This document shows positions 17,089 through 43,818 of a stretch of 64,000 nucleotides of DNA, in pieces (the stretch's first letter is position 1; every line of letters starts with the position of its first letter). Source of the DNA: Bacteroidales bacterium. Its GTDB lineage: Bacteria; Bacteroidota; Bacteroidia; Bacteroidales; Bacteroidaceae. The position numbers and the translations under genes are program-made. The notes under the pieces were generated by a model that was given only the letters and a program-made list of their open reading frames with translations, was not told the origin of the DNA and made no database searches. The stretch lies in the NCBI GenBank assembly GCA_024690405.1, contig JAILCU010000117.1, positions 253 to 64,252 on the forward strand, written 5' to 3'.

Positions 17089-17096
17089 TATCTTTG
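17089..17096 (+). promoter_or_regulatory. candidate -7 element TAtcTTTG, likely the promoter of the polyene island
   Basis: TATCTTTG lies 20 nt upstream of ATG 17116, and TTTG at 17064-17067 is at plausible -33 spacing. It sits inside the 5' extension of ORF 17074, which argues for the downstream start. Confidence 0.5.
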
Positions 17097-17115
17097 CGCT
17101 CGCATATTATGTAAT

Positions 17116-18648
17116 ATGATTATGACAACAACAAAAATTGATTACGAACAGATAGTAGAAAGCCTTTTTGAAGGCGCCCCACTTACTGTTGACGCAAAAG
17201 CAAAGGCAGAAGTGGAGCGCTGCTATCACTTCCTAGAGGCATTCTCCAAAGAGAAAGTGATCTATGGCATCAACACAGGTTTCGGTCCGATGGCACAATG
17301 GCGTGTCGACGACCAATACCTTAAAGATTTACAGTATAACATTATTCGCAGCCATTCCACCGGCGCCGGCGAACCCCTACCCGACCTCTACGTCAAAGCC
17401 GCGATGATAGCCCGCCTGGGGTCGTTGCTACAAGGGCGCAGTGGCATCCACACCGAAGTCGTGGACCTGCTCACAGAATTTATCAACCGCGGCATCTATC
17501 CCCTCATTCCCGAGCATGGCAGCGTAGGTGCCAGCGGCGACCTGGTGCAATTGGCACACATCGCACTGACGCTCATCGGCGAAGGTGAAGTGCACTACCA
17601 CGACGAATGGCGTCCGGCAGGCGACGTCTTGCGCGAATGCGGACTGAAGCCCATCAGCATCCATATCCGCGAAGGACTCTCCATCACCAACGGCACCAGC
17701 GTGATGACCGGCATCGGTCTAGTGAACCAAGTATTGGCAGAGAGACTGCTGGACTGGAGTATCGTAGCCGCAGTGTGGATGAACGAGATTGCCGAAAGTT
17801 ACGACGACATGATGGCGGTCCCCCTCAACGAATGCCGTCGCCACGAAGGACAGCAAGTGGTGGCCGAGCGGATGCGAAAGATAGCTGAAGGCGGCAGTCT
17901 GATGAAGAAACGCGAACACGAACTCTACGACCCCACGAAGAACACGGAACGCGTGTTCAAGCACAAAGTGCAAGCCTACTACTCCTTGCGCTGCACGCCC
18001 CAGATATTAGGTCCCATCTATGACACTCTGAAGGCTTCGCGCCAGATTCTCGAAGACGAAGTGAACTCAGCCAGCGACAATCCCATCGTTGACCCCGACA
18101 CCCAGAACGTGTACCATGGCGGCAATTTCCACGGCGACTACATCTCGCTGGAACAGGATAAGGTGAAGATTGCCATCGTTCGCCTGGCCATGACCAGCGA
18201 ACGCCAACTGAACTACCTCTTCCACGACCGCATCAACGATGCCATTCTCCCGCCGTTCCTCAACCTGGGCACGCTGGGGCTCAACTATGGTATGCAGGCC
18301 TGCCAGTTCACAGCCACTTCGACGACGGCAGAATGCCAAACCCTGGCCATGCCAAACTACGTGCACAGCATCCCCAACAACAACGACAACCAAGACATCG
18401 TTTCGATGGGTACCAACACCGCACTGCTCACCAAGAAAGTTATCGAGAACGCCTATCAAGTGATGGCCGTGCAGTTCATTGCCCTGACACAGGCCACAGA
18501 TTGCCGCAAGGTCGCTGACCGTCTTTCGCCTACGACCCGAACAATATATGAACACGTGCGACAACTCGTTCCTCTGTTCATCGAAGATACACCTTTCTAT
18601 AAAGAAATCGCCTCCGTAGAAGCCTATCTGAAGGACGGCAAATACTAA
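17116..18648 (+). CDS. MIO-dependent aromatic amino acid ammonia-lyase (HAL/TAL/PAL family)
   Basis: The MIO-forming triad Ala-Ser-Gly sits in GSVGASGDLVQLAH (17530-17538). It also has GINTGFGP, NIIRSHSTGAG and the QDIVSMG region. Confidence 0.85.
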   Translation: MIMTTTKIDYEQIVESLFEGAPLTVDAKAKAEVERCYHFLEAFSKEKVIYGINTGFGPMAQWRVDDQYLKDLQYNIIRSHSTGAGEPLPDLYVKAAMIARLGSLLQGRSGIHTEVVDLLTEFINRGIYPLIPEHGSVGASGDLVQLAHIALTLIGEGEVHYHDEWRPAGDVLRECGLKPISIHIREGLSITNGTSVMTGIGLVNQVLAERLLDWSIVAAVWMNEIAESYDDMMAVPLNECRRHEGQQVVAERMRKIAEGGSLMKKREHELYDPTKNTERVFKHKVQAYYSLRCTPQILGPIYDTLKASRQILEDEVNSASDNPIVDPDTQNVYHGGNFHGDYISLEQDKVKIAIVRLAMTSERQLNYLFHDRINDAILPPFLNLGTLGLNYGMQACQFTATSTTAECQTLAMPNYVHSIPNNNDNQDIVSMGTNTALLTKKVIENAYQVMAVQFIALTQATDCRKVADRLSPTTRTIYEHVRQLVPLFIEDTPFYKEIASVEAYLKDGKY

Positions 18649-18668
18649 CCCAACACTGCATCTTCACA

Positions 18669-19403
18669 ATGACAAAATACGCTTTAGTCACAGGCGGTTC
18701 ACGCGGACTCGGTCGTGCCGTATGCCTGAAGTTGGCTCAGATGGGGATTCCCGTCATCATCAACTACCAGTCCAACGCCACCGCTGCCGAGGAAGTCAAG
18801 ACTCAGATAGAAGCCACGGGGGGCATCGCAGAACTGCTGCCCTTCAACGTTGGCGACGAAACACAGGTGGAAGCCGCCCTCACCACGTGGCAGGACGCGC
18901 ACCCCGAAGATTATATCGCTTATCTGGTGAACAATGCCGGCATCCGCCGCGACAACCTGATGTTCATGATGCCCAGCGAAGACTGGCACGCCGTGCTCTC
19001 GACTTCGCTTGATGGTTTCTACTACGTCACCAAACGCTGCCTGCCAAAGATGATGATGCGACGCCACGGTGGGCGCATTGTCAATATGGCCTCGCTCAGC
19101 GGCATCAAAGGTCTGCCTGGCCAAGCCAACTACAGTGCAGCCAAGGCGGCCCTCATCGGTGCCACCAAGGCGCTGGCACAGGAATGTGCAGCCCGTGGCG
19201 TCACGGTCAACGCCGTAGCCCCCGGCTTCATTGAAACCGACATGACCAAAGACCTGGATGTGGACGAACTGAAGAAACTCGTACCCATGAACCGCTTCGG
19301 ACGTCCCGAAGAAGTGGCAGAATTGGTGGGGTTCCTCGTTTCCGACGCTGCCGCATATATCACCGGTGAAGTCGTCAGCATCAATGGCGGGCTGTACACC
19401 TAA
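18669..19403 (+). CDS. 3-oxoacyl-ACP reductase (SDR, FabG-like)
   Basis: It has TGGSRGLGRA (TGxxxGxG), NNAG and the catalytic YSAAK. Confidence 0.85.
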   Translation: MTKYALVTGGSRGLGRAVCLKLAQMGIPVIINYQSNATAAEEVKTQIEATGGIAELLPFNVGDETQVEAALTTWQDAHPEDYIAYLVNNAGIRRDNLMFMMPSEDWHAVLSTSLDGFYYVTKRCLPKMMMRRHGGRIVNMASLSGIKGLPGQANYSAAKAALIGATKALAQECAARGVTVNAVAPGFIETDMTKDLDVDELKKLVPMNRFGRPEEVAELVGFLVSDAAAYITGEVVSINGGLYT

Positions 19404-19448
19404 ACACAAAATAATGTAGAATATAACAACGAAAGCAAATAAACCAAC

Positions 19449-20714
19449 ATGGCTCCATATAACGACATCTCAGGAAAAGTTGCAGGCTCACGCCGCGTCG
19501 TCATTACCGGCATGGGCATCTGGTCGTGCATCGGACAGAACCTCGAGGAGGTGACCGCCTCCCTGCGTGCCGGACGTTCGGGCATTGGCACCGAACCAGA
19601 GCGCATCAGTTACGGTTACCAAAGTTCGCTCACAGGCATCGTGCCGCGCCCGGACTTGAAGAAACTGCTGCACCGACGCCTGCGTGCAGGTCTGCCCGAG
19701 GAGGGCGAATACGCCTTCATGGCCACCAAAGAAGCCTTTGAAGTGGCAGGCATAGACGAAGAATACCTGCTGGAGAACGAGGTCGGCGTGATTTTCGGTA
19801 ACGACTCATCGGCACAGCCCGTGATCGAGAGTGCCAATATCATGGCAGAGAAACACGACTCTCAGTTGCTGGGGTCGGGGCTCATCTTCCAGTCGATGAA
19901 CTCGACCGTGAACATGAACCTCTCCACCATTTTCCACCTGCGCGGTGTCAACTTCACCGTCAGTTCTGCCTGTGCCAGCGGCAGCCACAGCATCGGTCTG
20001 GCCTACATGATGATCAAGCAAGGTCTGCAGGACCTCGTCCTTGCCGGCGGTGCCCAAGAGACCAACTATTATTCGATGGCCTCGTTTGATGCGCTCGGAA
20101 CATTCAGCAAACGCCTCGACGAGCCTACGAAGGCCAGCCGTCCCTTCGACCGCGACCGCGACGGTCTCATCCCGAGCGGCGGCGCTGCAGCGCTGGTCCT
20201 CGAAGACTACGACCACGCCGTGGCGCGCGGAGCCCATATTCTGGCAGAAGTCTGCGGTTACGGTTTCTCATCGAACGGCGGTGGCATTTCCCAACCTTCC
20301 GACGACGGAAGTATGGTAGCGATGCAACGCGCCATGAACGATGCAGGCGTCACCGCCGATGATATTGACTATGTCAACGCACACGCCACCTCAACCCCCC
20401 AAGGCGATATGTACGAGGCCATTGCCCTCACCCGTCTGTTTGAAGGGCGGCATGCGTTCATCAGTTCCACCAAGAGCATGACGGGTCACGAATGCTGGAT
20501 GGCAGGTGCCAGCGAAGCCATTTACAGCATCCTGATGATGCGCAACCGCTTCGTTGCCCCCAATATCAACCTTGAAAATCCCGACGAGCACGCCGCCACT
20601 CTCAATTTGGCGCGCACTACCGTCGAGAACATAGACCTTCACACCATACTTAGCAATAGTTTCGGTTTCGGAGGAACAAACAGTGCTTTAGTAATCAAAG
20701 AGTTCAAGGAATAG
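19449..20714 (+). CDS. beta-ketoacyl-ACP synthase (FabF/FabB-type, catalytic)
   Basis: The Cys-His-His triad motifs are present: SSACASGSHS, NAHATSTPQGD and KSMTGHECWMAGA. Confidence 0.85.
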   Translation: MAPYNDISGKVAGSRRVVITGMGIWSCIGQNLEEVTASLRAGRSGIGTEPERISYGYQSSLTGIVPRPDLKKLLHRRLRAGLPEEGEYAFMATKEAFEVAGIDEEYLLENEVGVIFGNDSSAQPVIESANIMAEKHDSQLLGSGLIFQSMNSTVNMNLSTIFHLRGVNFTVSSACASGSHSIGLAYMMIKQGLQDLVLAGGAQETNYYSMASFDALGTFSKRLDEPTKASRPFDRDRDGLIPSGGAAALVLEDYDHAVARGAHILAEVCGYGFSSNGGGISQPSDDGSMVAMQRAMNDAGVTADDIDYVNAHATSTPQGDMYEAIALTRLFEGRHAFISSTKSMTGHECWMAGASEAIYSILMMRNRFVAPNINLENPDEHAATLNLARTTVENIDLHTILSNSFGFGGTNSALVIKEFKE

Positions 20715-20765
20715 AACTTCAACAACAAACAATTATTTATTCACCTTTTTAAAACCGACAAGAAA

Positions 20766-21332
20766 ATGAAACGTACACTTTTCACCGCTATCCTGGCAAT
20801 AGTAGCCATGGTAGCCTTCGCCAAGGCTGATGAGAAACAACTTCAACTGACGAAGACTGACGGCATTGCCAACTTCTTCGACAAATCCCAAACCGCTACC
20901 GTCAAATTCGTCTATGCATCTGACTGCGTAGCCTCGTACATGGGCGCAAACAAAATCCCCTATGCTGAATATGCACAGCGCAACGGCGAATGGGAAGAAG
21001 AGCACACCTACGGCGAAAGCGGCTTCACCGAAGACTGGAACAAGCGCAATAAGAAAGGCATGAAGATTGTGGAAGAAGGCGGCAACTTCCAGATTATCGT
21101 CACCATCCACGAAATCAAAGAAATGGCTGCTATGCAATCCTGGTGGGAAATCGTCAAGGGCGACATCAAGGTGCTCAATGCCGAAGGACAGTCTGTCGTA
21201 GAATACAAAATCAATGAATACTACGAAGTAGCTGGTGGTTTTGCTGCCATGAAACTGCGCAACCGCATCAAAGAGACCTTCGAAGGTCTGTCGGAGTCCA
21301 TGCTGAACTTCGCCAAGAAAGCAAACAAATAA
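20766..21332 (+). CDS. secreted protein of unknown function
   Basis: The 188-aa protein has the signal peptide MKRTLFTAILAIVAMVAFAKA with no lipobox Cys. I recognise no family motif. Confidence 0.6.
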   Translation: MKRTLFTAILAIVAMVAFAKADEKQLQLTKTDGIANFFDKSQTATVKFVYASDCVASYMGANKIPYAEYAQRNGEWEEEHTYGESGFTEDWNKRNKKGMKIVEEGGNFQIIVTIHEIKEMAAMQSWWEIVKGDIKVLNAEGQSVVEYKINEYYEVAGGFAAMKLRNRIKETFEGLSESMLNFAKKANK

Positions 21333-21338: not shown

Positions 21339-22442
21339 ATGAAACTTTTCCCTGCCTTAGAAAAGGCATACACCAAAGAAACATTATCGGCCCGCGAGGC
21401 GCAAGCCAAGGCCGAGTTCATAGCGTGGGGGCCTGTGGTCTTTCAGGCCTCCCGCTTAATGATTAAGTTCGGTATCCTCGACCTTTTGCGCGATGCCGAC
21501 AAAGGTCTGACACGCCAGGAACTGTGTGACCGTACAGGCCTCTCAGACTATGCCGTGAAATGCCTGACCGAGGCCGGTCTGTGCATTGGCACCATTCTTG
21601 TGGACACCGAGACGGACCGTTTCACACTGTCTAAGACAGGATGGTTCCTGCTCAACGACCCCGCTACGCGTGTAAACATTGACTTTAACCATGATGTCAA
21701 CTACGAAGGATGGTTCCATTTGGAGGAAGCCCTCAAAGAAGGCCGTCCTGCAGGACTGGAGCACTTCGGTTCATGGCCCACGGTTTACGAAGCGTTGAGT
21801 GAATTGCCGCCACAAGTTCAGAAAAGTTGGTTCGGTTTCGACCATTTCTATTCCGACACCTCATTCCCCGAGGCCTTGGAAATCGTTTTCGGCAAATACC
21901 ATACGCGCTCACTCTATGACGTCGGCGGCAACACCGGGAAATGGGCACTGCAATGCGTTGGCCACGACGACCAGGTGGAAGTGACCATCCTCGACCTGCC
22001 GCAGCAGATCAAGATGATGGAGGCGAACACCGCAGGAAAGCAAGGCGCCGAACGCATCAAAGGCTATGGCATCAACCTGCTCGACACGAACGCGTTGTTC
22101 CCACAGCGCGAAGGCGGACTTGATGCGATTTGGATGAGTCAGTTCCTCGACTGCTTCAGCGGCGAGGAAATCGTGAGCATCCTCACCCGCGCCAAGAATG
22201 CTATGACGGCCGACACGCGTATCTTTATTATGGAGACCCTCTGGGACCGCCAACGCTTCGAACCCGCTGCCTTCTGCCTGACAATGACCAGTCTGTATTT
22301 CACGGCTATTGCAAACGGCAACTCCAAGATGTACAACACAGAAGACATGACCAACTATGTCCACGCCGCCGGTCTTGAGGTGGAAACCATCTTCGATGGA
22401 CTGGGACAAGGACACAGCATCATGGTGGTCAAGAAAAAATAA
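21339..22442 (+). CDS. class I SAM-dependent O-methyltransferase (COMT-like, with an N-terminal winged-helix/dimerisation domain)
   Basis: SAM motif I is LYDVGGNTG, with an acidic residue after beta-2 (ILDLP). The length and N-domain resemble small-molecule O-methyltransferases. Confidence 0.75.
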   Translation: MKLFPALEKAYTKETLSAREAQAKAEFIAWGPVVFQASRLMIKFGILDLLRDADKGLTRQELCDRTGLSDYAVKCLTEAGLCIGTILVDTETDRFTLSKTGWFLLNDPATRVNIDFNHDVNYEGWFHLEEALKEGRPAGLEHFGSWPTVYEALSELPPQVQKSWFGFDHFYSDTSFPEALEIVFGKYHTRSLYDVGGNTGKWALQCVGHDDQVEVTILDLPQQIKMMEANTAGKQGAERIKGYGINLLDTNALFPQREGGLDAIWMSQFLDCFSGEEIVSILTRAKNAMTADTRIFIMETLWDRQRFEPAAFCLTMTSLYFTAIANGNSKMYNTEDMTNYVHAAGLEVETIFDGLGQGHSIMVVKKK

Positions 22443-22526: not shown

Positions 22527-22769
22527 ATGACAAGACAAGAAATTGAAGAGAAAGTAAGAAACTTCCTCATCGAAGACCTCGAGATTGAAGAAGACAAGAT
22601 TACGCCAGAGGCCCGCCTCAAGGAAGATATGGGCATTGACAGCCTCGATTTTGTCGACATCGTCGTCATCGTAGAAAAGAACTTCGGTTTCAAAATCAAG
22701 GCTGAGGAGATGGCCGGCATCACCACGCTGACCCAATTCTGCGACTACATCGAAAGCAAAGTAGCCTGA
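22527..22769 (+). CDS. acyl carrier protein
   Basis: The 80-aa protein has the phosphopantetheine attachment motif GIDSLDFVDIV. Confidence 0.85.
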   Translation: MTRQEIEEKVRNFLIEDLEIEEDKITPEARLKEDMGIDSLDFVDIVVIVEKNFGFKIKAEEMAGITTLTQFCDYIESKVA

Positions 22770-22902: not shown

Positions 22903-23805
22903 ATGGAACAACACCCACACCAGCAATGGAAAGGCACCACGGGCGGAACGCCTTGGATGCAACGTGCACTTGTTTACTGCCTCGGATGGATGAACCTACC
23001 GGTGGTCTATACAGGCATGGCGTTGGTTGTGCCGTTCTATATGCTTTTTAACCATCAAGGCTACCTCAGCCAATACCACTTCTTCCGGCGTCGGTTCGGG
23101 CACAATCCCGTCCGCTCGTTCTTCGACGTATATGCCAACCATTTCCGCTTCGGTCAAATCATTTTGGACCGCTTCGCCTTCTATGGCGGAGCCCGTTTCA
23201 AACTCATCACCGAGGGCAACGAACGCTTCATGGCACTCTGCAACCAACCGGAAGGTTTCATGCAGATAGGCACTCATGTAGGCAATTTTGAATTGGCCGG
23301 TTACATGCTTTCCCAAGACAAAAAAACCATCAATGCCCTCGTCTACGGGGGCGAGACGGGGACGGTGATGGAGAACCGGGAACGCGTGTTTGAACATCAG
23401 AACCTGCGGCTCATCATGACCAACGGTGACATTGATCACGTCTTCAAGATGAACAACGCCTTGGCCGACGGCCAGATCGTTTCGATGCACGGCGACCGTG
23501 TTTTCGGTTCACAAAAGACCATCCGATGCACCATTCTTGACGCTGAAGCCGAACTGCCAATGGGTCCCTACATTCTTGCCGCCACAAGAGATGTGCCCAT
23601 GGTGTGCACCTTTGTCATGAAAGACAATGTATACACCTATCACATCTATGTGCACGAGTTGCAACTCCCTGACGAGGTGAAAGGGAAAAGTGCCAAAGTC
23701 CGGGCCGCGGCACTGGCCCAAGCCTATGCCGACTGCCTGACGGATATCCTGAAGCGCTATCCGCACCAATGGCTCAACTACTACGAATTTTGGGGCGATA
23801 ACTAA
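22903..23805 (+). CDS. LpxL/HtrB-family (lysophospholipid/lipid A-type) acyltransferase
   Basis: The 300-aa protein has an N-terminal membrane anchor, GTHVGNFELAG (like the H-x4-E/D region of the LpxL family) and HGDRVFG. It occupies the position of ApeD-type genes in aryl-polyene clusters. The family call rests on weak motifs. Confidence 0.65.
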   Translation: MEQHPHQQWKGTTGGTPWMQRALVYCLGWMNLPVVYTGMALVVPFYMLFNHQGYLSQYHFFRRRFGHNPVRSFFDVYANHFRFGQIILDRFAFYGGARFKLITEGNERFMALCNQPEGFMQIGTHVGNFELAGYMLSQDKKTINALVYGGETGTVMENRERVFEHQNLRLIMTNGDIDHVFKMNNALADGQIVSMHGDRVFGSQKTIRCTILDAEAELPMGPYILAATRDVPMVCTFVMKDNVYTYHIYVHELQLPDEVKGKSAKVRAAALAQAYADCLTDILKRYPHQWLNYYEFWGDN

Positions 23806-23819: not shown

Positions 23820-24251
23820 GTGAACGTAATAGACACCCCCATACTGGAACTCATTCCACAGCGTCCGCCTTTTGTCATGGTGGACCGGGTCGTGGCTTTC
23901 GACCGCATTAACACGACCACTACATTTCTTGTGCGCGAGGACTGCATCTTCGTGGAGGACGGTGTGCTCGTGCCCAATGGAATGGTAGAGAATATCGCCC
24001 AGACCTGTGCTGCACGAATGGGCTGCGTGAACTCTCTGAACAAGGAGAGCGTCAAACTCGGATTCATCGGTGCCGTACGAGATATGTCGTTCCTCCGCCT
24101 GCCACGCATCGGAGAAACACTTTCCACAAGCATCATTGTTCGCGAAGAAGTTTTCCGCATGACGCTGGTCGACGCCGAGGTTCGCGTGGGCGAGGAAATC
24201 ATAGCCACCGCTGAAATGAAAATCGCCTTAAGCGAAGTCGATGCGCAATAA
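23820..24251 (+). CDS. hotdog-fold dehydratase subunit (ApeI/ApeP-like)
   Basis: The 143-aa protein begins LIPQRPPFVMVDRV, typical of FabZ-like hotdog N-termini, but it lacks the HFPxxP motif. It has a GTG start. Confidence 0.6.
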   Translation: MNVIDTPILELIPQRPPFVMVDRVVAFDRINTTTTFLVREDCIFVEDGVLVPNGMVENIAQTCAARMGCVNSLNKESVKLGFIGAVRDMSFLRLPRIGETLSTSIIVREEVFRMTLVDAEVRVGEEIIATAEMKIALSEVDAQ

Positions 24252-24293
24252 CATTAATGAACGATGCGCAATCACACAAATGAACGATAAACA

Positions 24294-24713
24294 ATGAAGG
24301 AACTACGCGCAAGCAAACTGTTAGACATACGATTCAGCGAAGTTGACTCCATGGGAGTCGTCTGGCACGGTTCGTACCCACTCTATTTCGAGGATGCCCG
24401 CGAGGAATGGGGCCGAAAATATGGTTTCGGCTATCTTGACATGTTCGAACATGAGTTCTACGCCCCCCTTGTCGACTTGCAGTTTTGCTACAAGCGCCCT
24501 ATAATATATGGTATGCGCCCGCGCGTGGACATCATCTATCGTCCCACCGAGGCCGCCAAGATTATTTACGACTACGAGATTCATGACACCCGCGACGAGA
24601 GTCTGCTCACCACCGGGCATAGCATCCAGGTGTTCATGAACAAACAATATCAACTGCTTTGGGAGAATCCTCCCTTCTACGAGCAATGGAAACAACGATG
24701 GGAAAACGAGTAG
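24294..24713 (+). CDS. 4HBT/YbgC-type acyl-CoA/ACP thioesterase
   Basis: IRFSEVDSMGVVWHGSYPLYFEDAREEW carries the catalytic-Asp motif of YbgC/4HBT hotdog thioesterases. Confidence 0.75.
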   Translation: MKELRASKLLDIRFSEVDSMGVVWHGSYPLYFEDAREEWGRKYGFGYLDMFEHEFYAPLVDLQFCYKRPIIYGMRPRVDIIYRPTEAAKIIYDYEIHDTRDESLLTTGHSIQVFMNKQYQLLWENPPFYEQWKQRWENE

Positions 24714-35214: not shown

Positions 35215-36704
35215 AGAAATGCGTCATCATAGGCAGCGGCCTCGGAGGCCTCTCTACGGGTGTCATTCTGGCACGCGAAGGGTTCGACGTGACCATCCTC
35301 GAACAGGAAGCGCAGCCCGGAGGTTGCCTGCAATGTTTCCAGCGACGCGGTGTCAAGTTCGAGACTGGCATGCATTTCATCGGCAGCGCCCAACGCGGAC
35401 AGACGCTGAACCGCTTGATGCGCTATCTCGAGATTGACGATATCGCGCTGCAGGCCCTTGATACGCAAGCCTACGACATTGTCCGCTTAGGCAACGATGA
35501 GTTTCGTTTCCCCAATGGAACCGAGGCCTTCATCGAGCAGATGAGCCGGTATTTCCCGCACGAGCGAGAAGGTATTGAAGCATACATTAATTGCGTGGAG
35601 AGCGTTGCCCAGGCCTCGAGTCTGCACACCCTCAACCTGGAGAATGCAGACAGCGCTATCAGCACGGAATATCAGTTGCGGAGCATCAACGAAGTCATTG
35701 AGAGTCACATTCAGGACCATGTCTTGCGCGATGTGCTCGTGGGGAATCTGCCTCTCTATGCGGCCCAACGCGACAAGACGCCTTTCTCCACCCACGCCTT
35801 CATCGTTGATTTCTATAATCAAAGCAGTTTCCGCGTTACGGGCGGCAGCGACCTCATCGGACTGGCACTGCAAAAGAGGTTGGAGCACCACGGAGGACAT
35901 CTGTTCACACATCAGAAGGCGGTGAAGATTCACGACGACGGTCAGCGGGTGACAGGCGTTACCACTGCAGATGGCAACTACTACGATGCCGATATCGTTG
36001 TCAGCGCCATTCATCCGGTGCCAACCCTGGCGATGACCGACAGCCCGCTCATCCGTCCTGCCTTCCGCCGGCGCATGAACCACTTGCCCAACACCATCGG
36101 CATTTTCGCGGTTTACCTGCATTTCAAGGAAGGCCGTATGCCTTATCTCAACAGCAATTACTATGGCTACCGCCCAGGTGTCTCACCTTGGGACAGTGGG
36201 GAATATACCCTCGCCGACTGGCCACGTGGATACCTCTATATGCATCTCTGTCACCAAGCACAGCCCCGATATGCCCGTGCCGGTGTCATCCTCAGTTATA
36301 TGAGATTCGAAGAGATGGCGCCATGGGTGGGCACGGAAGTGGGCCATCGCGGAGCCGATTATGAACAGTTCAAGCGCCAGCGTGCCGAACGTCTCATTGA
36401 CGCGGTGGGCAAGGCTTTCCCCACGCTGCGCGACAGCATAGAACATTATTATACATCTACGCCGCTCACCTATCTCAACTATACAGGCACACCCGAGGGC
36501 AGTGCCTATGGTATCGCCCGCGATATCTCATTGGGCGTCTCATGCCATGTCCCCCAGCGGACCAAACTGCCCGGTCTGTACCTGACAGGACAAAACATCA
36601 ACTCACATGGTATCCTGGGAGTATTGGTGGGCACGGTCGTTACCTGCTCCGACCTCCTTGGTACAGAGTACCTTTATCAGCAGATCATCAAAGCGAATTT
36701 ATGA
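35211..36704 (+). CDS. FAD-dependent oxidoreductase, phytoene desaturase (CrtI)-like, copy 1
   Basis: The Rossmann motif is KKCVIIGSGLGGLSTGVILAREGFDVTILEQ...GG. The C-terminal CrtI-like motif is LPGLYLTGQNINSHGILG. It has an ATGA overlap with the upstream gene. Confidence 0.8.
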   Translation: MKKCVIIGSGLGGLSTGVILAREGFDVTILEQEAQPGGCLQCFQRRGVKFETGMHFIGSAQRGQTLNRLMRYLEIDDIALQALDTQAYDIVRLGNDEFRFPNGTEAFIEQMSRYFPHEREGIEAYINCVESVAQASSLHTLNLENADSAISTEYQLRSINEVIESHIQDHVLRDVLVGNLPLYAAQRDKTPFSTHAFIVDFYNQSSFRVTGGSDLIGLALQKRLEHHGGHLFTHQKAVKIHDDGQRVTGVTTADGNYYDADIVVSAIHPVPTLAMTDSPLIRPAFRRRMNHLPNTIGIFAVYLHFKEGRMPYLNSNYYGYRPGVSPWDSGEYTLADWPRGYLYMHLCHQAQPRYARAGVILSYMRFEEMAPWVGTEVGHRGADYEQFKRQRAERLIDAVGKAFPTLRDSIEHYYTSTPLTYLNYTGTPEGSAYGIARDISLGVSCHVPQRTKLPGLYLTGQNINSHGILGVLVGTVVTCSDLLGTEYLYQQIIKANL

Positions 36705-38218
36705 AAAATGTGATTATCATAGGAGGTGGATTCGGAGGTCTTACGACCGGTGCCCTGCTGGCCCATGAAGGCTTGCACGTCACTGTCATCGAGAAGAACC
36801 ATGAAATCGGCGGTGGGCTGCAGAGTTTCACACGCCACGGCATCCATTTCGAAACAGGTATGCACATTCTCGGCGGATTGTCGGAGGGCGGTTCGGTGCG
36901 TCGTATTTTCGAGTACCTGGGCATTATGGACAAAGTGTGCATCAAGCGCTGCGACCTCGATTGCATGGATGAAGTCACCTATCTCCGCACCGGCGACCAC
37001 TATCAGTTGCCTCAGGGACGCGAAGCCTTCACCGAGGCTTTGTGCCGCTATTTCCCTGCCGAACGCGAAGGCATTCATCGCTACTTACAGGCTTGCTACG
37101 ACCTCACCGAGGAAGTGGATATCTTCTATTTGCGTCCAACGACCAGTGTCTTCTCAGCCCATAGCGAACGCTTCATGCAACCGGCCGACGAGTTTATCGC
37201 CGATTTCATCGAAGATCCGCGACTACGTGACCTCCTGGCGTATATGAATCCCATGTACGGAGGTGTGAAAGGCCATACGCCGGCTTATATCCATGCACTC
37301 ATCAATGTGCTGTACATCGGCGGCCAATACCATTTCATCGGCCGCAGTCAGCACTTGGCAGAACTCCTGGCAGACGTCATCCGCAAGAACGGCGGCGAAG
37401 TCATCACCGGGAAAGGGGTCAAGAGCATACACGTCGAGGACAAGTGCGTCACTGACGTTGAAACTACCGACGGCACGCACTTTCAAGGCGATTACTATAT
37501 TTCATCCATACACGTCAAGACGCTGCTGCCATTGCTCACGGACGGTGCCCTGCCACGAGGTTATGTCAACCGATTGACCGACGCGCCCGTCACCTATTCC
37601 GCCTTTATTCTCTACCTCGTCTTCAAGCCTGAGACCTTCCCCTACATCAACCATACAGGCTACATCCAGGACGACTACGGACAGATATGGACCCACGCGC
37701 AATACGACGGCACCTGGCCCCGTGGCATTATGTTCCTTACGCCGCCAAGTGAACATCAAGGTCCGTGGGCAAAGCGAATGACGCTCAACTGCATTATGAG
37801 TTGGGACGAAGTGAAGCGATGGGAGCACACTCACATCGGTCATCGGGGCCGCGACTATGAAGCGTGGAAGCAAGAACAGGCCGAACGCATCATTGCCAAA
37901 CTCGAGCAACGTTTTCCGCAAATCCGTTCGTGCATCGATACTTATTACACAGCCTCGCCGCTCACCATCCGCGACTATTACGCATCACCCGAAGGCTCGC
38001 TCTACGGCTACAGCAAGGACGGTCTGGATACAGCCCGGACCCTGATTGCACCAGTCACCCGCGTCCGCAACCTCCTGCTCTCAGGACAATGCGTCAACCT
38101 CCACGGCATCTGTGGCGTTCCGCTCACGGCCATCAATACCGCCGAATGTATTTTCGGATTCAACAACATCGTGAACAAGATCAACGAAACGACCCTGCCG
38201 CACGACGAGAAAAAGTAA
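36701..38218 (+). CDS. FAD-dependent oxidoreductase, phytoene desaturase (CrtI)-like, copy 2
   Basis: KNVIIIGGGFGGLTTGALLAHEGLHVTVIEK...GGG is clearly paralogous to copy 1 along its whole length. It has an ATGA overlap with copy 1. Confidence 0.8.
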   Translation: MKNVIIIGGGFGGLTTGALLAHEGLHVTVIEKNHEIGGGLQSFTRHGIHFETGMHILGGLSEGGSVRRIFEYLGIMDKVCIKRCDLDCMDEVTYLRTGDHYQLPQGREAFTEALCRYFPAEREGIHRYLQACYDLTEEVDIFYLRPTTSVFSAHSERFMQPADEFIADFIEDPRLRDLLAYMNPMYGGVKGHTPAYIHALINVLYIGGQYHFIGRSQHLAELLADVIRKNGGEVITGKGVKSIHVEDKCVTDVETTDGTHFQGDYYISSIHVKTLLPLLTDGALPRGYVNRLTDAPVTYSAFILYLVFKPETFPYINHTGYIQDDYGQIWTHAQYDGTWPRGIMFLTPPSEHQGPWAKRMTLNCIMSWDEVKRWEHTHIGHRGRDYEAWKQEQAERIIAKLEQRFPQIRSCIDTYYTASPLTIRDYYASPEGSLYGYSKDGLDTARTLIAPVTRVRNLLLSGQCVNLHGICGVPLTAINTAECIFGFNNIVNKINETTLPHDEKK

Positions 38219-38311: not shown

Positions 38312-39607
38312 ATGGAGACAATCAAAATGAAACTGATCTACCCGAAGTGGCAGAAACTGCGCGGGCAGACAACATTTAACCTTCCGCCTCACGGCCCTGT
38401 GGCGTTTGCGGCAACCCTTCCCGAGTATGTCGACGTATCCTTTACCGACGAGAACGTAGAGGAAATCAACTTCGACGAACCTTGCGATATCGTAGCACTC
38501 TCGATGATGCTTTCGACACAGGTGAAACGGGGTTGGGAGATTGCCGACGAATACCATCGCCGGGGTAAACTCGTGATGGCTGGCGGCATCTCTTCAATGC
38601 TCCACGCCGAAGATATGGTGAACCACGTTGACAGCCTCTTCCTCGGCGAGAGCGAAGGGCGCATGGAACAAGTGATGCAGGACTTCGTGCGCGGCGAGAT
38701 GAAAAAGGTCTACAACTTTATGGGGCAGATGCCACCGATTGAGGACGTAGGTCCGTGTCGTCGCGACCTCTACAAGCGCGACCTTTACAACCACAAGGGT
38801 GTGCCTATGGTTGACCTCTTCCACGCCAGCCGTGGATGTCGTTTCAGTTGCTATCCCTGTGCGGTCAGTTACCTCGGCGGCCGCAAATTCCGCCCTCGTC
38901 CCATCGACAAAGTTGTAGAAGATATGGCTTCGATTGACAACAACCGCCTGTTCATCGTCGACAACTCGCTCGCTCAGAACAAGGATTGGGAGCGCGAACT
39001 CTTCAAGGCCATAGCACCGCTGAAGAAGAAATGGATCAGTCACACCATTGAGGACGACCCCGAAATCCTGGACCTCGCAGGCAAGGCCGGCGCCTGGTAT
39101 GTCTATCAGGCGGTCTATGACACCAGCGACTACATCAAGGAACGTGTCAAGCGCTACCACGACAACGGAATCGGTGTGGAAGGCACGATTCTCTTAGGTC
39201 TGGACAACCAGACGGAGGACGACATCAAACGCCTCATCGATTTCCTCGGAGAAATCGACCTCGACCTGGCTGAGTTCACAGTGATGACACCGTTCCCCCA
39301 CACCAAGGGCTACGATGATTTGTTGCGCCAAGGCCGTATCTTCGACTTCGACTGGAACCACTACAATGCCGGACAGGTGGTCTTCCAACCCAAGCATATG
39401 ACGCCTGAACGCCTACAGGAACTCTACGACTACGCCTGGAAGAGTTTCTACAAGGACGAGACGCAAGAGGCCAAGATGTTCAACCTGTTCTGTCAGGTAG
39501 CCCTGCGCGAGATGAACGAAGGCACCTATCGCCCCCGCGATCGCCGACTCATGAACCGCAGTTTCGGTAAAGTTGTCGACCGCAGCAAGCGTAACGTGAA
39601 CTTATAA
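38312..39607 (+). CDS. B12-binding-domain radical SAM enzyme
   Basis: The N-terminal part is a Rossmann-like B12-binding domain (DIVALSMMLSTQ...LVMAGGIS). The radical SAM cluster motif CRFSCYPC (CX3CX2C) is at 38837-38860. Confidence 0.85.
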   Translation: METIKMKLIYPKWQKLRGQTTFNLPPHGPVAFAATLPEYVDVSFTDENVEEINFDEPCDIVALSMMLSTQVKRGWEIADEYHRRGKLVMAGGISSMLHAEDMVNHVDSLFLGESEGRMEQVMQDFVRGEMKKVYNFMGQMPPIEDVGPCRRDLYKRDLYNHKGVPMVDLFHASRGCRFSCYPCAVSYLGGRKFRPRPIDKVVEDMASIDNNRLFIVDNSLAQNKDWERELFKAIAPLKKKWISHTIEDDPEILDLAGKAGAWYVYQAVYDTSDYIKERVKRYHDNGIGVEGTILLGLDNQTEDDIKRLIDFLGEIDLDLAEFTVMTPFPHTKGYDDLLRQGRIFDFDWNHYNAGQVVFQPKHMTPERLQELYDYAWKSFYKDETQEAKMFNLFCQVALREMNEGTYRPRDRRLMNRSFGKVVDRSKRNVNL

Positions 39608-39741: not shown

Positions 39742-40101
39742 ATGAAAGTACCCAAAGAATATTACGACGAAATCTTTGAATTCCGCGGTCAATGGGATAT
39801 GCCTTCCGCCTGCGGACTGAAGATTCGTACCGTGGAAGGCGTCACCTATGTGATTGTCACAGAGATGTATCAAGAGAATCCCGGAACCAGCGTGACCTAT
39901 GCCGGCCGCAGCCTGGCAGAACAGATTTGCGAGGCCAAGGGACTCAATATGAACGAGATTGTGTACCTCGAATGCACGCCTAACACCAACTCCAAGTTGT
40001 CGTTCTACGACGAAGAATACTTCCGCGTGGACTTCAGCGGCGAGCGACCTGCCTACGAACAACTCCCTGCGGAAGAAGTCCACCGCGTGTTAGGCAACTG
40101 A
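39742..40101 (+). CDS. hypothetical cytoplasmic protein (about 119 aa)
   Basis: The ORF is 39667..40101, and I prefer the start at ATG 39742 (MKVPKEYYDEIFEF...). It has no signal peptide, and I recognise no motif. Confidence 0.5.
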   Translation: MKVPKEYYDEIFEFRGQWDMPSACGLKIRTVEGVTYVIVTEMYQENPGTSVTYAGRSLAEQICEAKGLNMNEIVYLECTPNTNSKLSFYDEEYFRVDFSGERPAYEQLPAEEVHRVLGN

Positions 40102-40119
40102 GCAACGGAGAACTTCATT

Positions 40120-41280
40120 ATGATGCGAACCGTGAAGCACATCTTATGCAGCGCCGTGCTACTCCTCACTGCTACGACGGCTATAGCAGCGGCCTCTGAA
40201 GCAGCCACAACAACTGCCTTAGCCACTGCCCTTCCCTCAGCGCCCCCAAAGGCCTCTTTGCCGGCGAAAAGTGCAGCAGCAGAGAGCACCCCGGCAGCGA
40301 AAGCAAGTGCTCCCGCAGAGGCTACTCCGGCAGCGAAAGCAAGTGCGGCAGCAGAGAGCACCCCGGCAGCGAAAGCAAGTGCTCCCGCAGAGGCCTCGAC
40401 AGCGAGCGTACCACTTGCTCCCATCAGGCTCTGGGAAGAAACTCCTGTGCACGCACGCGGCGTGACGCTTGTTCCTTATCTCCCTGAGGCAGGCCACGCC
40501 AGCCGCTTCGGCACGACGAACGGCACACCGGCCATCATCATCTGTCCCGGTGGAAGTTATTGCTGGCATGACTACGAGGCGGAAGGCACGCTTGTGGCCG
40601 AGTGGCTGCAGCGTGAAGGTATTGCGGCATTTGTGCTGAAATATCGTGTTCAAGGCATTTTCCCCTATGTGTTTCACACCCGTTTAATCGCCCGCGGAAA
40701 CCAGCACCCTGATGCGCTCACCGACGTGCAACGTGCTATTCAATATGTACGTGAACATACGAAGGATTTCGGTATCGACGAACACCGTCTCGGCGTGATG
40801 GGTTTCTCGGCCGGCGGCCATCTGAGTATGAGTGCAGCGGCCTACGCCTCCACCGATTTCCTGTCACAGCACGGCATCCGCCATCACGTCAGCCTGCGAC
40901 CCGATTTCGTAGCACCCATTTATCCCGTAGTGACTATGCACAAGCCTTACGTTCACAGCCGCAGCCGCCGTGCCTTGCTCGGTGAGTACCGCAAGCACCG
41001 GCAGGCTATGCGCGATTCAATGTCCCTGGAGATGCACGTCCCGAACGATTGTCCGCCGGTGTTTCTTCTCAACTGCACCGACGACCCCATCGTGATGTAT
41101 CAGAACAGCGAATTGCTCGATAGCGCCCTTACCGCTGCCGGCGTTCCTCACCAGTACACGCAATATCGGACCGGCGGCCACGGGTTCGGTGGGGATTCAG
41201 CACGTTTCACGGCCGAGACGGCCCACTGGCAAGAGACCTTCCTGCTATGGCTCACCCAACTTTTTCATACAACCCTCTGA
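40120..41280 (+). CDS. secreted alpha/beta hydrolase (Aes-type esterase/lipase) with an Ala/Pro-rich repeat linker
   Basis: The signal peptide is MMRTVKHILCSAVLLLTATTAIAA. It has an oxyanion-region CPGGSY, the nucleophile elbow GFSAGGH and a C-terminal GGHGF. Confidence 0.8.
   Translation: MMRTVKHILCSAVLLLTATTAIAAASEAATTTALATALPSAPPKASLPAKSAAAESTPAAKASAPAEATPAAKASAAAESTPAAKASAPAEASTASVPLAPIRLWEETPVHARGVTLVPYLPEAGHASRFGTTNGTPAIIICPGGSYCWHDYEAEGTLVAEWLQREGIAAFVLKYRVQGIFPYVFHTRLIARGNQHPDALTDVQRAIQYVREHTKDFGIDEHRLGVMGFSAGGHLSMSAAAYASTDFLSQHGIRHHVSLRPDFVAPIYPVVTMHKPYVHSRSRRALLGEYRKHRQAMRDSMSLEMHVPNDCPPVFLLNCTDDPIVMYQNSELLDSALTAAGVPHQYTQYRTGGHGFGGDSARFTAETAHWQETFLLWLTQLFHTTL
40276..40394 (+). repeat. 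in-frame 72-nt tandem duplication inside the esterase linker
   Basis: The identical 47-mer gcagcagagagcaccccggcagcgaaagcaagtgctcccgcagaggc occurs at 40276-40322 and 40348-40394. It encodes AESTPAAKASAPAEA repeats. Confidence 0.85.
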
Positions 41281-41283
41281 CTT

Positions 41284-42576
41284 ATGAACCACGAAGATAT
41301 TGAATTCAGACAACCTGCTGAGATACGCGCCTTCCAGGAACAACTCCTGCGCAAGGCACTGGACTACCTCGACGCGCATTCGCCTTACTATCAGCGCCTG
41401 TTCAGGGAACAGCACATTGATGTGAAGGAGATACACACGCTGGACGACCTCCGGCGCCTGCCCTTTACAGAGAAGAAGGACTTGCAACTCTTCAACGACG
41501 ATTTCCTCTGCTGCCCAAAAGAGAAGATAGTGGATTACATCACCACCAGCGGCACCCTGGGCGAACCCGTCACCTTCGGCTGCACCGATGCAGACCTTGA
41601 ACGCCTGGCCTACAACGAACAGAAGTCTTTTGCCTGTGCTGGTCTCAAGCCCGGCAATATCCTGCAGTTGATGACGACCATCGACAAACGTTTTATGGCA
41701 GGTCTGGCCTACTTCCTCGGCATCCGCCGATTGGGCGCCAGCATTATCCGTGTAGGCAACGGAATCCCCGAACTGCAGTGGGATACGATCCAGCGATTGC
41801 ACCCCGACACGATTATGTGCGTGCCCTCATTCATCTTGCGCTTGATTGAATATGCCGAGGAACACGGAATTGACTACCGCGCCAGCAGCGTCAAACGCAT
41901 TATCGGCATCGGCGAAGGACTGCGCGACCAGGATTTCAACCTCAACCTGCTCGGCCGGCGCATCAAGGAGAAATGGGATGTTGAACTCTATGCCACCTAC
42001 TCCAGCACCGAGATGGGGGCAACCTTCTCGGAATGTCAGTACGGGTGTGGCGGACACGTTCACCCCGAACTCATCATCGTCGAGATCATCGGTGACGATG
42101 ACCAACCGGTCCCCGACGGGCAGCCTGGCGAAGTGGTCGTGACCACCCTTGGCGTGGAGGCGATGCCCTTGCTCCGTTTCCGCACAGGTGATATCGCGGC
42201 CAAACGTGTTGAGCAGTGCCAATGCGGACGTTGGAGTTATCGGCTGACGCCGCTCGTAGGGCGCAAGAACAATATGATAAAACTCAAGGGCACGACGCTC
42301 TATCCTCCTGCAATCAACGACGTTCTGGACAACACCGAGTACGTCCAGAACTATATCGTATATGTGCGTTCATCCTCTGCCGGCACCGACCAGGTGGACG
42401 TCTGCGTAGGTCTGAAGCACGAACCTCCGTTTGACGCCGTCAAAGACCTGAAGGACCGTTTCCGCTCGCGCATCCGTGTGGCTCCGAATGTCGAGATTCT
42501 CAACGTGGATGAAATCCAGCGGCGCAATTTCCCCGCCAAGAGCCGCAAACCCATCAAATTCGTGGACCTCAGATAA
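41284..42576 (+). CDS. PaaK-like adenylate-forming enzyme (phenylacetate-CoA ligase / F390 synthetase family)
   Basis: The 430-aa protein has TTSGTLGEPV (the AMP-binding P-loop-like motif), YSSTEMG and FRTGD, with the short PaaK architecture. Confidence 0.8.
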   Translation: MNHEDIEFRQPAEIRAFQEQLLRKALDYLDAHSPYYQRLFREQHIDVKEIHTLDDLRRLPFTEKKDLQLFNDDFLCCPKEKIVDYITTSGTLGEPVTFGCTDADLERLAYNEQKSFACAGLKPGNILQLMTTIDKRFMAGLAYFLGIRRLGASIIRVGNGIPELQWDTIQRLHPDTIMCVPSFILRLIEYAEEHGIDYRASSVKRIIGIGEGLRDQDFNLNLLGRRIKEKWDVELYATYSSTEMGATFSECQYGCGGHVHPELIIVEIIGDDDQPVPDGQPGEVVVTTLGVEAMPLLRFRTGDIAAKRVEQCQCGRWSYRLTPLVGRKNNMIKLKGTTLYPPAINDVLDNTEYVQNYIVYVRSSSAGTDQVDVCVGLKHEPPFDAVKDLKDRFRSRIRVAPNVEILNVDEIQRRNFPAKSRKPIKFVDLR

Positions 42577-42607
42577 GTTACTAACTAACTCATAAACCTC
42601 TACGCTT

Positions 42608-43750
42608 ATGGACACTACCGCACAATTCGACGATATCCGTCCTTTCTACGACTCCGAAATCCCGGCAGCGATGCAGCGCATCGCAGAGAGCCCTCATTTC
42701 CCGCTTCTGGCACAATATGTCTATCCCGGTGCCGACCTTGAAAAAGTCAAGCAACTGCTGGTGCAGTTCAAGACCGTACGCGATTTCCAACTCGAAGTGA
42801 TGCGCTGCGTCAACGAACAGGTCATTGCCCGCAGCATCACCGATTTCACGTATGACGGCATTGAGCGCCTCGACCCTGAAAAACGCTATCTTTTCGTGAG
42901 CAACCACCGCGACATTATGCTCGACGCGTGTCTGCTGCAATACGTTCTGTGGAAGAACGGGCACGAGACCACGGAAATCACTTTCGGAGCCAATCTGATG
43001 AGTTCACCATTGGTGATTGATATCGGTAAGTCAAACAAGATGTTCCGCGTGGAGCGAGGCGGCACGCCCCGCGAGTTCTACCGTTCATCCATGCATCTTT
43101 CGCAGTACATCCGCCATTGCATCACCGAGAAGCACCAGTCCGTGTGGATTGCTCAGCGCAACGGCCGTACCAAGGACGGTATCGACCAGACCGACCAAGG
43201 CATCATCAAGATGTTCGGAATGAGTATGGCCAAGCAACCCGTCCAGGCACTGGCTGAATTGAACATCGTACCCGTGAGCATCAGTTACGAATGGGAAAGT
43301 TGCGACTTGCTGAAAGCACGCGAACTCTACCTGAGCCAAGGCACCAAATATGTCAAGCAACCCGGCGAGGACCTCAACAGCATCCTCACGGGCGTGTTGC
43401 AGCCTAAAGGCTGCGTGCATATCTCTTTCTGCGAGCCTGTCACTGCCGCCGACCTCGAGCCCCTGGCCGCCGATGTCAACAGCGAGTTCAACCGCGCTGT
43501 TGCCCGTCTCTTGGACAAGCGCATCACCAGTGCCTACCATCTCACCCCCAACAACTACATCGCTTATGACCTGCTGCACTGCACGTCGAAATATGCCGAC
43601 CGCTACACAGCCGCCCAGCGCGATGCATTCCTGGCCCACACCGAAAAACTCAGCAACTTGCACATCGACGACCTCTGCACCATCAATGCCATGCGCTCGA
43701 TTCTCTGGGGCATCTATGCCAATCCCATTGACAACGTCGTCACGGAATAA
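42608..43750 (+). CDS. PlsC-superfamily (lysophospholipid) acyltransferase
   Basis: The 380-aa protein has YLFVSNHRDIMLDA (the acyltransferase His/Asp block) and AQRNGRTKDG (block III-like). Confidence 0.7.
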   Translation: MDTTAQFDDIRPFYDSEIPAAMQRIAESPHFPLLAQYVYPGADLEKVKQLLVQFKTVRDFQLEVMRCVNEQVIARSITDFTYDGIERLDPEKRYLFVSNHRDIMLDACLLQYVLWKNGHETTEITFGANLMSSPLVIDIGKSNKMFRVERGGTPREFYRSSMHLSQYIRHCITEKHQSVWIAQRNGRTKDGIDQTDQGIIKMFGMSMAKQPVQALAELNIVPVSISYEWESCDLLKARELYLSQGTKYVKQPGEDLNSILTGVLQPKGCVHISFCEPVTAADLEPLAADVNSEFNRAVARLLDKRITSAYHLTPNNYIAYDLLHCTSKYADRYTAAQRDAFLAHTEKLSNLHIDDLCTINAMRSILWGIYANPIDNVVTE

Positions 43751-43777
43751 AGCCTTCTCCGGTCTCCTCCATCACAA

Positions 43778-43818
43778 CAGCCCGCCGCAAACATCACATT
43801 TGCGGCGGGCTGTTTTTT
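43778..43818. terminator. strong hairpin terminator between the island and the convergent mdh
   Basis: A perfect 13-bp GC-rich stem, CAGCCCGCCGCAA/TTGCGGCGGGCTG, has an 8-nt loop and is followed by TTTTTT on the plus strand. Confidence 0.85.

Follow-up and report, generated by a model that had tools for sequence, protein, structure and literature searches.

A flexirubin-type aryl-polyene gene cluster with a lineage-specific gene complement in an uncultured gut Bacteroidales bacterium

A 64,000-nucleotide stretch of DNA from an uncultured Bacteroidales bacterium of the family Bacteroidaceae (contig JAILCU010000117.1 of GenBank assembly GCA_024690405.1, positions 253 to 64,252 of the forward strand; hereafter the window) carries 26 consecutive plus-strand genes, g1 to g26 (17116-43750), which we consider, at a probability of about 0.85, to constitute a functional flexirubin-type aryl-polyene pathway working by the general mechanism proposed below. 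This figure applies to the functional pathway and its general mechanism and excludes our leaning towards a product free of dialkylresorcinol (DAR). Profile searches and synteny assign the cluster to the flexirubin (flx) polyene type, beyond mere likeness to the aryl-polyene (APE) clusters, because five curated NCBIfam flexirubin equivalogs (FlxA, FlxB, FlxJ, LolA2 and FlxY) are matched above cut-off and 20 of the 26 genes match the flx cluster of Persicobacter psychrovividus plasmid pPP6 one-to-one and in the same order (27-60% identity). The preliminary description of this DNA, an aryl-polyene/flexirubin-type type II polyketide synthase (PKS) equipped with lipid-anchoring and export genes, is borne out by these equivalogs and by Pfam, and every domain that it named was reproduced with Pfam and NCBIfam.

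Gene content and predicted chemistry of the cluster

Searching plasmids with FlxY (tblastn) yielded two complete, RefSeq-annotated flx clusters for comparison, on pPP6 and on pAUEa of Aureispira anguillae. Collinearity with pPP6 runs through g1-g3, g5-g13, g15, g17-g21 and g25, and the same gene mapping holds against the published flxA-flxY table of Chitinophaga pinensis DSM 2588 (Cpin_1853-1877, MIBiG BGC0000839; Schoener et al. 2014, PMC3992019). Expressed in flx letters, the window reads A, B, C, (g4), J, D, E, F, H, I, L, M, (N and O fused), (g14), Q, R, S, T, U, V, V', (g22, g23, g24), Y, (g26). As in C. pinensis, pPP6 and pAUEa, a tyrosine ammonia-lyase (TAL) comes first and a PaaK-type ligase stands at the far end. 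The preliminary description had presented this placement of lyase and ligase at opposite ends as a stand-out feature; it is the canonical FlxA-to-FlxY layout of C. pinensis and Persicobacter, and, though canonical, it supports the block as one unit. Clusters of the C. pinensis type also share with the window, in nearly the same order, a ketoreductase (KR), three ketosynthases (KS), an FlxL-like protein, a chain length factor (CLF), two acyl carrier proteins (ACPs), two hotdog dehydratases, a thioesterase, FlxJ, an LpxL-type acyltransferase, LolA2 with a candidate LolB2, a GT2 glycosyltransferase, an MMPL-acyltransferase exporter and FlxV. By comparison with them the window is without FlxW (C45 peptidase-like), FlxP (polysaccharide deacetylase), FlxK, FlxX and FlxG, has KS and CLF fused and FlxV duplicated, and adds g4, an ArnE/F-like g14, a radical SAM enzyme together with g23, an exported esterase and a further acyltransferase of the PlsC family. 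Pfam and NCBIfam found no counterpart of the FlxK halogenase or the FlxX phosphopantetheinyl transferase among the 26 gene products. The hosts differ as well, the reference organisms being aerobic soil or marine bacteria and ours an uncultured, presumably anaerobic gut or rumen Bacteroidales.

The first gene, g1 (17116-18648), specifies FlxA, a 4-methylideneimidazole-5-one (MIO) TAL with the ASG motif present, which scores 841.5 bits against NF053541 FlxA_rubin_TAL (cut-off 700) and 1e-157 against Pfam Lyase_aromatic and is 52.6% identical to Persicobacter FlxA. Its predicted partner, the PaaK-type 4-coumarate-CoA ligase FlxY, is g25 (41284-42576; NF053551 FlxY_rubin, 688 bits, cut-off 520). 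TAL activity of FlxA and 4-coumarate-CoA ligase activity of FlxY have been shown for the C. pinensis enzymes (PMC3992019). FlxA would thus deaminate tyrosine to 4-coumarate, which FlxY would convert to 4-coumaroyl-CoA. The enzymology of this pair is demonstrated only in the C. pinensis orthologues, and the pathway steps downstream of it are inferred from homology and synteny.

Chain assembly would be the task of a compact type II set. The stand-alone KS g3 (19449-20714), the FlxC orthologue, has Pfam KS N- and C-terminal domains, is 60% identical to Persicobacter FlxC and lies below all FabB/FabF equivalog cut-offs, and g13 (26662-28911) joins FlxN and FlxO into one protein with two KS-type halves. 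Alignment to Escherichia coli FabF shows the catalytic Cys-His-His residues intact in g3, in g10 and in the N-terminal half of g13, in agreement with the three catalytic KS counted in the preliminary description; the C-terminal half of g13 has lost all three residues and is for that reason taken as CLF-like. KS and "chain length factor" are separate genes in Persicobacter, in Aureispira and in one related gut locus (L104, 1-1760). Two ACPs accompany them: g6 (22527-22769), the FlxD orthologue with a PP-binding domain and 45% identity to Persicobacter ACP1, and g12 (26395-26652), FlxM, likewise PP-binding, passing NF006617 (89.5 bits, cut-off 70) and 61% identical to Persicobacter ACP2. On these, g3 and the fused KS-CLF would extend the chain with malonyl units. 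Each round would then involve the short-chain dehydrogenase/reductase-type KR FlxB (g2, 18669-19403; NF053542 FlxB_rubin_SDR, 396 bits, cut-off 340) and the hotdog dehydratases g8 (FlxF, 23820-24251, ApeP-like; FabZ-like at E 7e-10) and g17 (FlxS, 30438-30812, ApeI-like; weak FabA/FabZ matches), without enoyl reduction, to give a conjugated polyene. The dehydratase types are borne out by orthologues in related loci, that of g8 in L098 bearing Pfam ApeP-like and that of g17 in L104 Pfam ApeI-like. A 4HBT thioesterase, FlxH (g9, 24294-24713; Pfam 4HBT_2), is 45% identical to the Persicobacter thioesterase. FlxJ (g5, 21339-22442; NF053543, 584.3 bits, cut-off 560) belongs to the flexirubin methyltransferase family and probably methylates the aryl ring, yielding a methylated aryl polyene; the ring methyl of flexirubin originates from methionine (PMC3992019).

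Which enzyme receives the aryl starter is suggested by an exchange among relatives. The KS g10 (FlxI, 24698-25813), with Pfam support and an intact catalytic triad by the FabF alignment, is the candidate starter-specific KS. It is followed by g11 (25810-26373), a truncated KS-like protein, without any Pfam or NCBIfam profile match, that is 33% identical to Persicobacter FlxL. We regard g11 as the partner of g10 because it occupies the FlxL position and because the orthologues of these two genes, separate in the window, are fused in the close relatives L098 and L099 (one 572-aa protein, 17518-19236 of L098). Eight loci (L001, L002, L003, L005 and L009-L012) are devoid of FlxY; they place instead, after the g26 orthologue, a classical ANL-type AMP-binding ligase unrelated to FlxY (20741-22066 of L001, to be compared with 41284-42576 of the window). 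Exactly in the ANL-ligase loci that cover g10 (seven of the eight, since the L002 stretch ends short of g10/g11), g10/g11 are only 27-45% identical to those of the window; Bacteroidaceae loci that bear FlxY and extend over the pair show 57-80% for it, and the adjoining ACP g12 keeps 81-96% identity in both groups. The identity class of g10 thus covaries perfectly with ligase type among the relatives, and this joint swap suggests that g10/g11 are the KS pair that would accept the starter handed over by the ligase. A ligase-plus-KS cassette swap may therefore define starter specificity.

Candidate anchoring and export functions complete the canonical part of the cluster. The LpxL/HtrB-type acyltransferase g7 (FlxE orthologue, 22903-23805; Pfam Lip_A_acyltrans) is 32% identical (E 6e-58) to the Persicobacter "lipid A biosynthesis acyltransferase," and g19 (FlxU, 31597-35214) fuses an MMPL/RND exporter to a PlsC-type acyltransferase (Pfam MMPL and Acyltransferase; 27% identity to Persicobacter FlxU over 1182 aa). 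The flexirubin-specific periplasmic carrier LolA2 is g15 (29378-30007; NF053544 LolA2_flexi, 217.5 bits, cut-off 125). Next to it, g16 (29982-30428) is LolB2-like (NF053540 LolB2_flexi, E 8e-8) and has an N-terminal hydrophobic, signal-like segment; its position and its 26-nt overlap with LolA2 are identical in Persicobacter, and LolA2/LolB2 are always present in flexirubin loci (PMC11885536). The GT2 glycosyltransferase g18 (FlxT, 30840-31589; Pfam GT2) is of the polyprenyl-phosphate-sugar synthase type and 44% identical to its Persicobacter orthologue, with NCBIfam matches below threshold to the S-layer glycosyltransferase AglJ (74.3 bits, the best), PpgS (65.3) and ArnC (43.4). Given the gene set shared with other flx clusters and the precedent of the Xenorhabdus APE-lipid, the LpxL-type and PlsC-type acyltransferases would move the acyl chain onto a membrane acceptor, GT2 with the ArnE/F-like g14 would supply a sugar-phosphate-lipid step, and the MMPL exporter with LolA2 and the LolB2-like g16 would carry the product to the outer membrane.

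Two FAD oxidoreductases of the CrtI/CrtD/RetSat family follow, g20 (35211-36704) and g21 (36701-38218), which are 32% (E 1e-95) and 33% (E 2e-103) identical to Persicobacter FlxV; the best Protein Data Bank (PDB) match of g21 is gamma-carotene desaturase 4rep (E 8e-16). Both resemble FlxV and yet are only 33% identical to each other, which indicates an old duplication of this standard flx gene. The preliminary description had counted this CrtI-like pair among the genes without an assigned role in any characterized APE or flexirubin pathway, and g16 among the unknown proteins. These readings give way to FlxV and LolB2-like, respectively; the radical SAM enzyme, g23, the esterase, g4, g14 and g26 do remain extra to the characterized clusters.

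Conservation and lineage-specific genes

Loci related to the cluster are widespread in gut Bacteroidales. Used to scan genomes, g19 found 15 loci (up to 72% identity), all from metagenome-assembled genomes of uncultured ruminant and gut Bacteroidaceae, Prevotellaceae and Paludibacteraceae, and a metagenome scan with FlxA returned 568 relatives (up to 78%) from rumen, human and primate gut samples; all matches of a further FlxA search were gut relatives, at least 72% identical. Collinearity of the block in the 15 genome loci and in 80 metagenome loci (tblastn), as well as in common human-gut contigs, agrees with its earlier description as one unit. In the loci anchored on FlxA the cluster begins with this gene. 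Some relatives (L007, L051 and L104-L107) have the two halves apart, inverted or in another order, yet keep the genes together. Nearest among the relatives found is a contig from a rumen metagenome (L097; GCA_016295205.1, JAEEGJ010033649.1), whose FlxA is 92% identical and whose context, RecX-GH2-FlxA-KR-KS followed by a 188-aa open reading frame (ORF), matches the window. Exact-sequence look-ups of g13 and g22 found no record of either protein in the collections searched.

Six genes of the window are absent from the characterized clusters, namely g4, g14, g22, g23, g24 and g26. Most Bacteroidaceae/Prevotellaceae loci contain orthologues of g20, g21, g24 and g26, and by this comparison the extra gene set is co-conserved in uncultured rumen and gut members of the two families. 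Of the six, g4 (20766-21332) is rarely conserved; it specifies a 188-aa protein, predicted to be secreted from the signal peptide visible in its sequence, and is a lineage-specific insertion. It has no Pfam or NCBIfam match, exceeds 70% identity only in L003 and L005, and finds weak matches (25-27%) in three metagenome loci; ORFs of 188-189 aa without Pfam match follow the KS at the same position in L097-L099. The 117-aa EamA/SMR-type membrane protein g14 (29015-29368; Pfam EamA) resembles ArnE/ArnF flippase subunits (55 bits to ArnE and 51 bits to ArnF, both under cut-off), is conserved in the gut loci and sits where other flx clusters have the FlxP deacetylase. Taken with the GT2 g18, it hints at a lipid-linked sugar step.

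The radical SAM enzyme g22 (38312-39607) carries CxxxCxxC at C176/C180/C183 and a weakly supported N-terminal domain of the B12-binding type. It stays below all NCBIfam cut-offs, and its best PDB match, AprD4, is marginal (E 1e-3). It may be a methyltransferase; AprD4, its closest solved relative, is none. Across L001-L007 this protein is 93-97% identical, compared with mostly 60-90% for neighbouring cluster genes. Its obligate neighbour g23 (39742-40101) encodes a 119-aa protein that most likely starts at ATG 39742 rather than at the annotated TTG 39667, judging from homologues of 117-125 aa. The g23 family comprises 1284 homologue clusters at 90% identity, all named hypothetical and none with a Pfam domain. 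An alignment-based AlphaFold2 model of g23 is confident (pLDDT 85.8; a single-sequence model, at pLDDT 46, was discarded), and Foldseek found no fold match for it in the PDB (best TM-score 0.35), where a sequence search also came back empty. Both g22 and g23 occur together in L001-L007, L051 and L104-L107 and are together absent elsewhere among the related loci.

Downstream of this pair, g24 (40120-41280) specifies an exported alpha/beta-hydrolase esterase of the BD-FAE family (Pfam BD-FAE, 1.6e-23) with a signal peptide, from which an Ala/Ser/Pro-rich linker, encoded by a 36-nt tandem repeat (40279-40392, 3.2 copies), separates the esterase domain; the L104 orthologue (295 aa) is without this repeat linker. 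The last gene, g26 (42608-43750), encodes an accessory PlsC-family acyltransferase of 380 aa with a Pfam Acyltransferase domain and no NCBIfam match. Our guess is that the second FlxV, the radical SAM enzyme with g23, the esterase, g26 and g14 are most likely tailoring functions that act on the polyene or on the lipid accepting it.

The polyene acceptor and competing explanations

The window shares much with the Ape clusters of E. coli CFT073 and Xenorhabdus doucetiae: an unusual type II PKS with KS/CLF, heteromeric dehydratases, two ACPs, a methyltransferase, a thioesterase, a lipid acyltransferase, a glycosyltransferase, LolA/LolB-like proteins and an RND/MMPL exporter. The KS/CLF pair, the RND exporter and the LolA-like carrier are seen in the window itself, and Pfam annotation of orthologues recovers the ApeI/ApeP-type dehydratases. 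The Ape systems take 4-hydroxybenzoate as starter via ApeH, without TAL, FlxY or an FlxV-type oxidoreductase, whereas the window has FlxA and FlxY, and its sequence-level membership is in the Flx rather than the Ape families. Ape products are anchored in the outer membrane to a glycerophospho-sugar lipid (aryl-polyene lipids, APELs); in Xenorhabdus, ApeD/ApeJ esterify the polyene to an N-acetylgalactosamine-phosphate-glycerol lipid, with export through an RND pump and LolA/B-like proteins (bioRxiv 10.1101/2020.12.19.423268).

Classical flexirubins differ in their acceptor, a DAR made by DarA and DarB. The flexirubin cluster of Flavobacterium johnsoniae UW101 (Fjoh_1074-1110, MIBiG BGC0000838) has the same core enzymes as the window and holds LolA2/LolB2 inside the cluster (Fjoh_1085/1084; PMC11885536), where the window has LolA2 and the LolB2-like g16; it also contains two darB/darA pairs, ABC transporter genes and FlxW, none of which is in the window cluster. 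Pfam and NCBIfam detect neither DarA nor DarB or any other KSIII among window ORFs of at least 100 aa, and an E. coli FabH query found no KSIII-like match in the window or in 95 loci (L001-L015 and L017-L096); the called genes of L097-L099 and L104-L107 are likewise without a KSIII Pfam domain. The preliminary description was therefore right that the cluster has no DarB-type KSIII or DarA. The conclusion it drew, that the polyene would not be esterified to a DAR, does not follow from local absence, because C. pinensis darAB (Cpin_6850/6851) lie in a locus separate from flxA-flxY (PMC3992019) and thus outside the cluster as in the window. Nor can its appeal to acyltransferase, GT2, LolA and MMPL genes as evidence of a glycolipid anchor be upheld, since bona fide flexirubin producers have these genes too and they do not discriminate between the two acceptors.

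What tips the balance slightly is the joint absence of FlxW and darAB from about 100 conserved neighbourhoods. As tblastn queries, neither Persicobacter FlxW nor FlxP found a homologue in the window or among 98 gut loci, and FlxW adjoins FlxY in C. pinensis, F. johnsoniae, Persicobacter and Aureispira. On these grounds we lean by a narrow margin towards an acceptor other than DAR and a product closer to an APE-lipid than to a classical flexirubin. The more specific proposal that this cluster, devoid of FlxW and darAB, serves rumen and gut Bacteroidaceae/Prevotellaceae to build aryl-polyene lipids of a new class for the outer membrane instead of flexirubin, with the polyene on a sugar-phospholipid-type anchor and tailored by the FlxV pair and the B12-type radical SAM enzyme with g23, is tentative, and we hold it at somewhat less than even odds.

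A conventional flexirubin, with the polyene acid esterified to a DAR whose darAB genes lie elsewhere in the genome, is in our judgement unlikely. The distance between the flx and dar loci of C. pinensis gives it a precedent, no darAB is annotated within 20-30 kb of the flx clusters of pPP6 and pAUEa either, and all five flexirubin-named equivalogs pass their cut-offs here. Set against this are the lack of FlxW in the window and all 98 gut loci and of a KSIII gene in some 100 neighbourhoods. Flexirubin-type pigments are also not known from Prevotellaceae or Bacteroidaceae. Literature searches for dar genes in Bacteroidia found nothing relevant.

More basic challenges concern the pathway itself. 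That the KS, ACP, KR and dehydratase genes serve ordinary type II fatty-acid synthesis, the block being a lipid-metabolism region, is effectively refuted: g3, g10 and g13 do match FabB/FabF models at low E-values and g2 passes the FabG model, but the FabB/FabF equivalog scores fall far under their cut-offs (401/630 for g3, 311/494 for g13 and 125/494 for g10) and the flexirubin equivalogs pass instead. FabZ equivalog scores likewise stay well under cut-off. Profile searches thus did not place the KS genes in ordinary fatty-acid families; such a placement had been named beforehand as counting against a polyene cluster. Furthermore, the block holds an active-site-less CLF, a TAL and a PaaK-type ligase, and neither Pfam nor NCBIfam finds FabD, FabH or FabI/K among its genes. 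It is also quite improbable that a polyene/Lol/GT core (g1-g18) merely abuts one or more unrelated lipid-modification units (g19-g26). Such a partition would accommodate the second half being detached or inverted in L007 and L051 and reordered in L104-L107, and a promoter-like motif inside the block at 26271; FlxY, however, required to activate the FlxA product, sits in the second half, FlxU, FlxV and FlxY belong to every characterized flx cluster, and the halves remain adjacent even when rearranged.

Our reading of the block as a flexirubin-type polyene pathway, with its leaning on the acceptor, has to be set against several points that count against it. The cluster is known here from its sequence, and we can only guess at what FlxV, the radical SAM enzyme, g23, the esterase, g26, g14 and g4 do. 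The LolB2-like g16 reaches 32 bits against NF053540 LolB2_flexi, under the curated cut-off of 60. With the cluster halves separated or inverted in L007 and L051, a single transcript is not obligatory. Finally, FlxW has only been proposed as the enzyme that joins polyene and DAR (PMC3992019), so that its loss is weak evidence, and darAB may lie in the genome beyond the 64-kb window, as they lie apart in C. pinensis.

Cluster layout, surroundings and biological meaning

ORF listing and translation confirm that all 26 ORFs are in frame with a single stop and that the co-directional coordinates and five start/stop overlaps given in the preliminary description (24698/24713, 25810/25813, 29982/30007, 35211/35214 and 36701/36704) are correct; the widest intergenic gap is 133 nt. 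A copy of the Bacteroidota -7-type promoter motif TAnnTTTG, TATCTTTG (17089-17096, plus strand), stands at the cluster head, 20 nt before the FlxA ATG. The window holds 30 copies of this motif against 21.9 +/- 4.7 in shuffles, a marginal enrichment, and most of them lie directly upstream of gene starts (e.g., 588, 5104, 7273, 8529, 16854 on the minus strand, 17089, 44909 on the minus strand, 44980 and 49946), so it is a usable promoter marker in this genome; a sigma-70-type promoter scan is uninformative for Bacteroidota. Between 17097 and 44900 the only further copy is that at 26271, about 120 nt before the ACP g12. Behind the block, an intrinsic terminator (43776-43822, plus strand) consists of a hairpin at 43776-43814 followed by a T run. 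Its stem has 16 bp with 10 G-C pairs (the preliminary description gave a 13-bp GC hairpin at 43778), and the block has no other plus-strand site that looks like a strong terminator. Given a single promoter motif in front, a single strong terminator behind, and short gaps and overlaps between the genes, we take the operon-like anatomy as real, and the cluster is probably transcribed from 17089 to 43776. The short g8-g9 intergenic region contains a 23-nt direct repeat (24239-24288, 2.2 copies, 88% match).

Housekeeping genes make the borders of the block sharp. Upstream, a GH2 glycosidase (14326-16815) and RecX lie on the opposite strand, as does malate dehydrogenase (Mdh, 43855-44853) downstream, where an M24 peptidase is also encoded. 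The GC content of the block resembles that of its flanks, and scans of the window for tRNAs and Rfam families found no tRNA or riboswitch near the cluster; there is no evidence for a mobile island. The downstream flank (49983-57540) encodes a BamI-like protein (below cut-off), the type IX secretion system protein PorG, UppS, a BamA-like POTRA protein and three OmpH-family (Skp-like) proteins, and a Cbp1-family adhesin gene lies upstream in the window (1728-2579); this outer-membrane biogenesis set and the adhesin are consistent with a Bacteroidales chromosome.

The cluster family as such is already recognized, with MIBiG entries, curated profile models and thousands of members counted when microbiomes of the rumen, gut and mouth were surveyed with antiSMASH (PMC8241843, PMC9248904, PMC13455363). 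A rumen survey listed 2,800 aryl-polyene clusters in 8,160 genomes and found Prevotella clusters expressed in vivo (PMC8241843), and an association with caries has been described for APE clusters of Prevotella (PMC13455363). We found no report in the literature on the product of any Bacteroidales aryl-polyene cluster. Our advance is incremental, since the cluster type is known and has curated models; as far as the searchable literature shows, the novelty lies in the Bacteroidales-specific gene complement and its product, which are undescribed there.

To conclude, few biosynthetic gene clusters are as abundant in Bacteroidales of the rumen, gut and mouth as those for aryl polyenes, and the dissection presented here separates canonical flx genes from a lineage-specific tailoring set, which provides concrete knockout and heterologous-expression targets for the outer-membrane chemistry of commensals. 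It also flags the ligase/KS cassette swap as a possible determinant of starter-unit specificity. If the proposed tailoring by the radical SAM enzyme with g23 and by FlxV is true, it would represent an oxygen-independent route in strict anaerobes.

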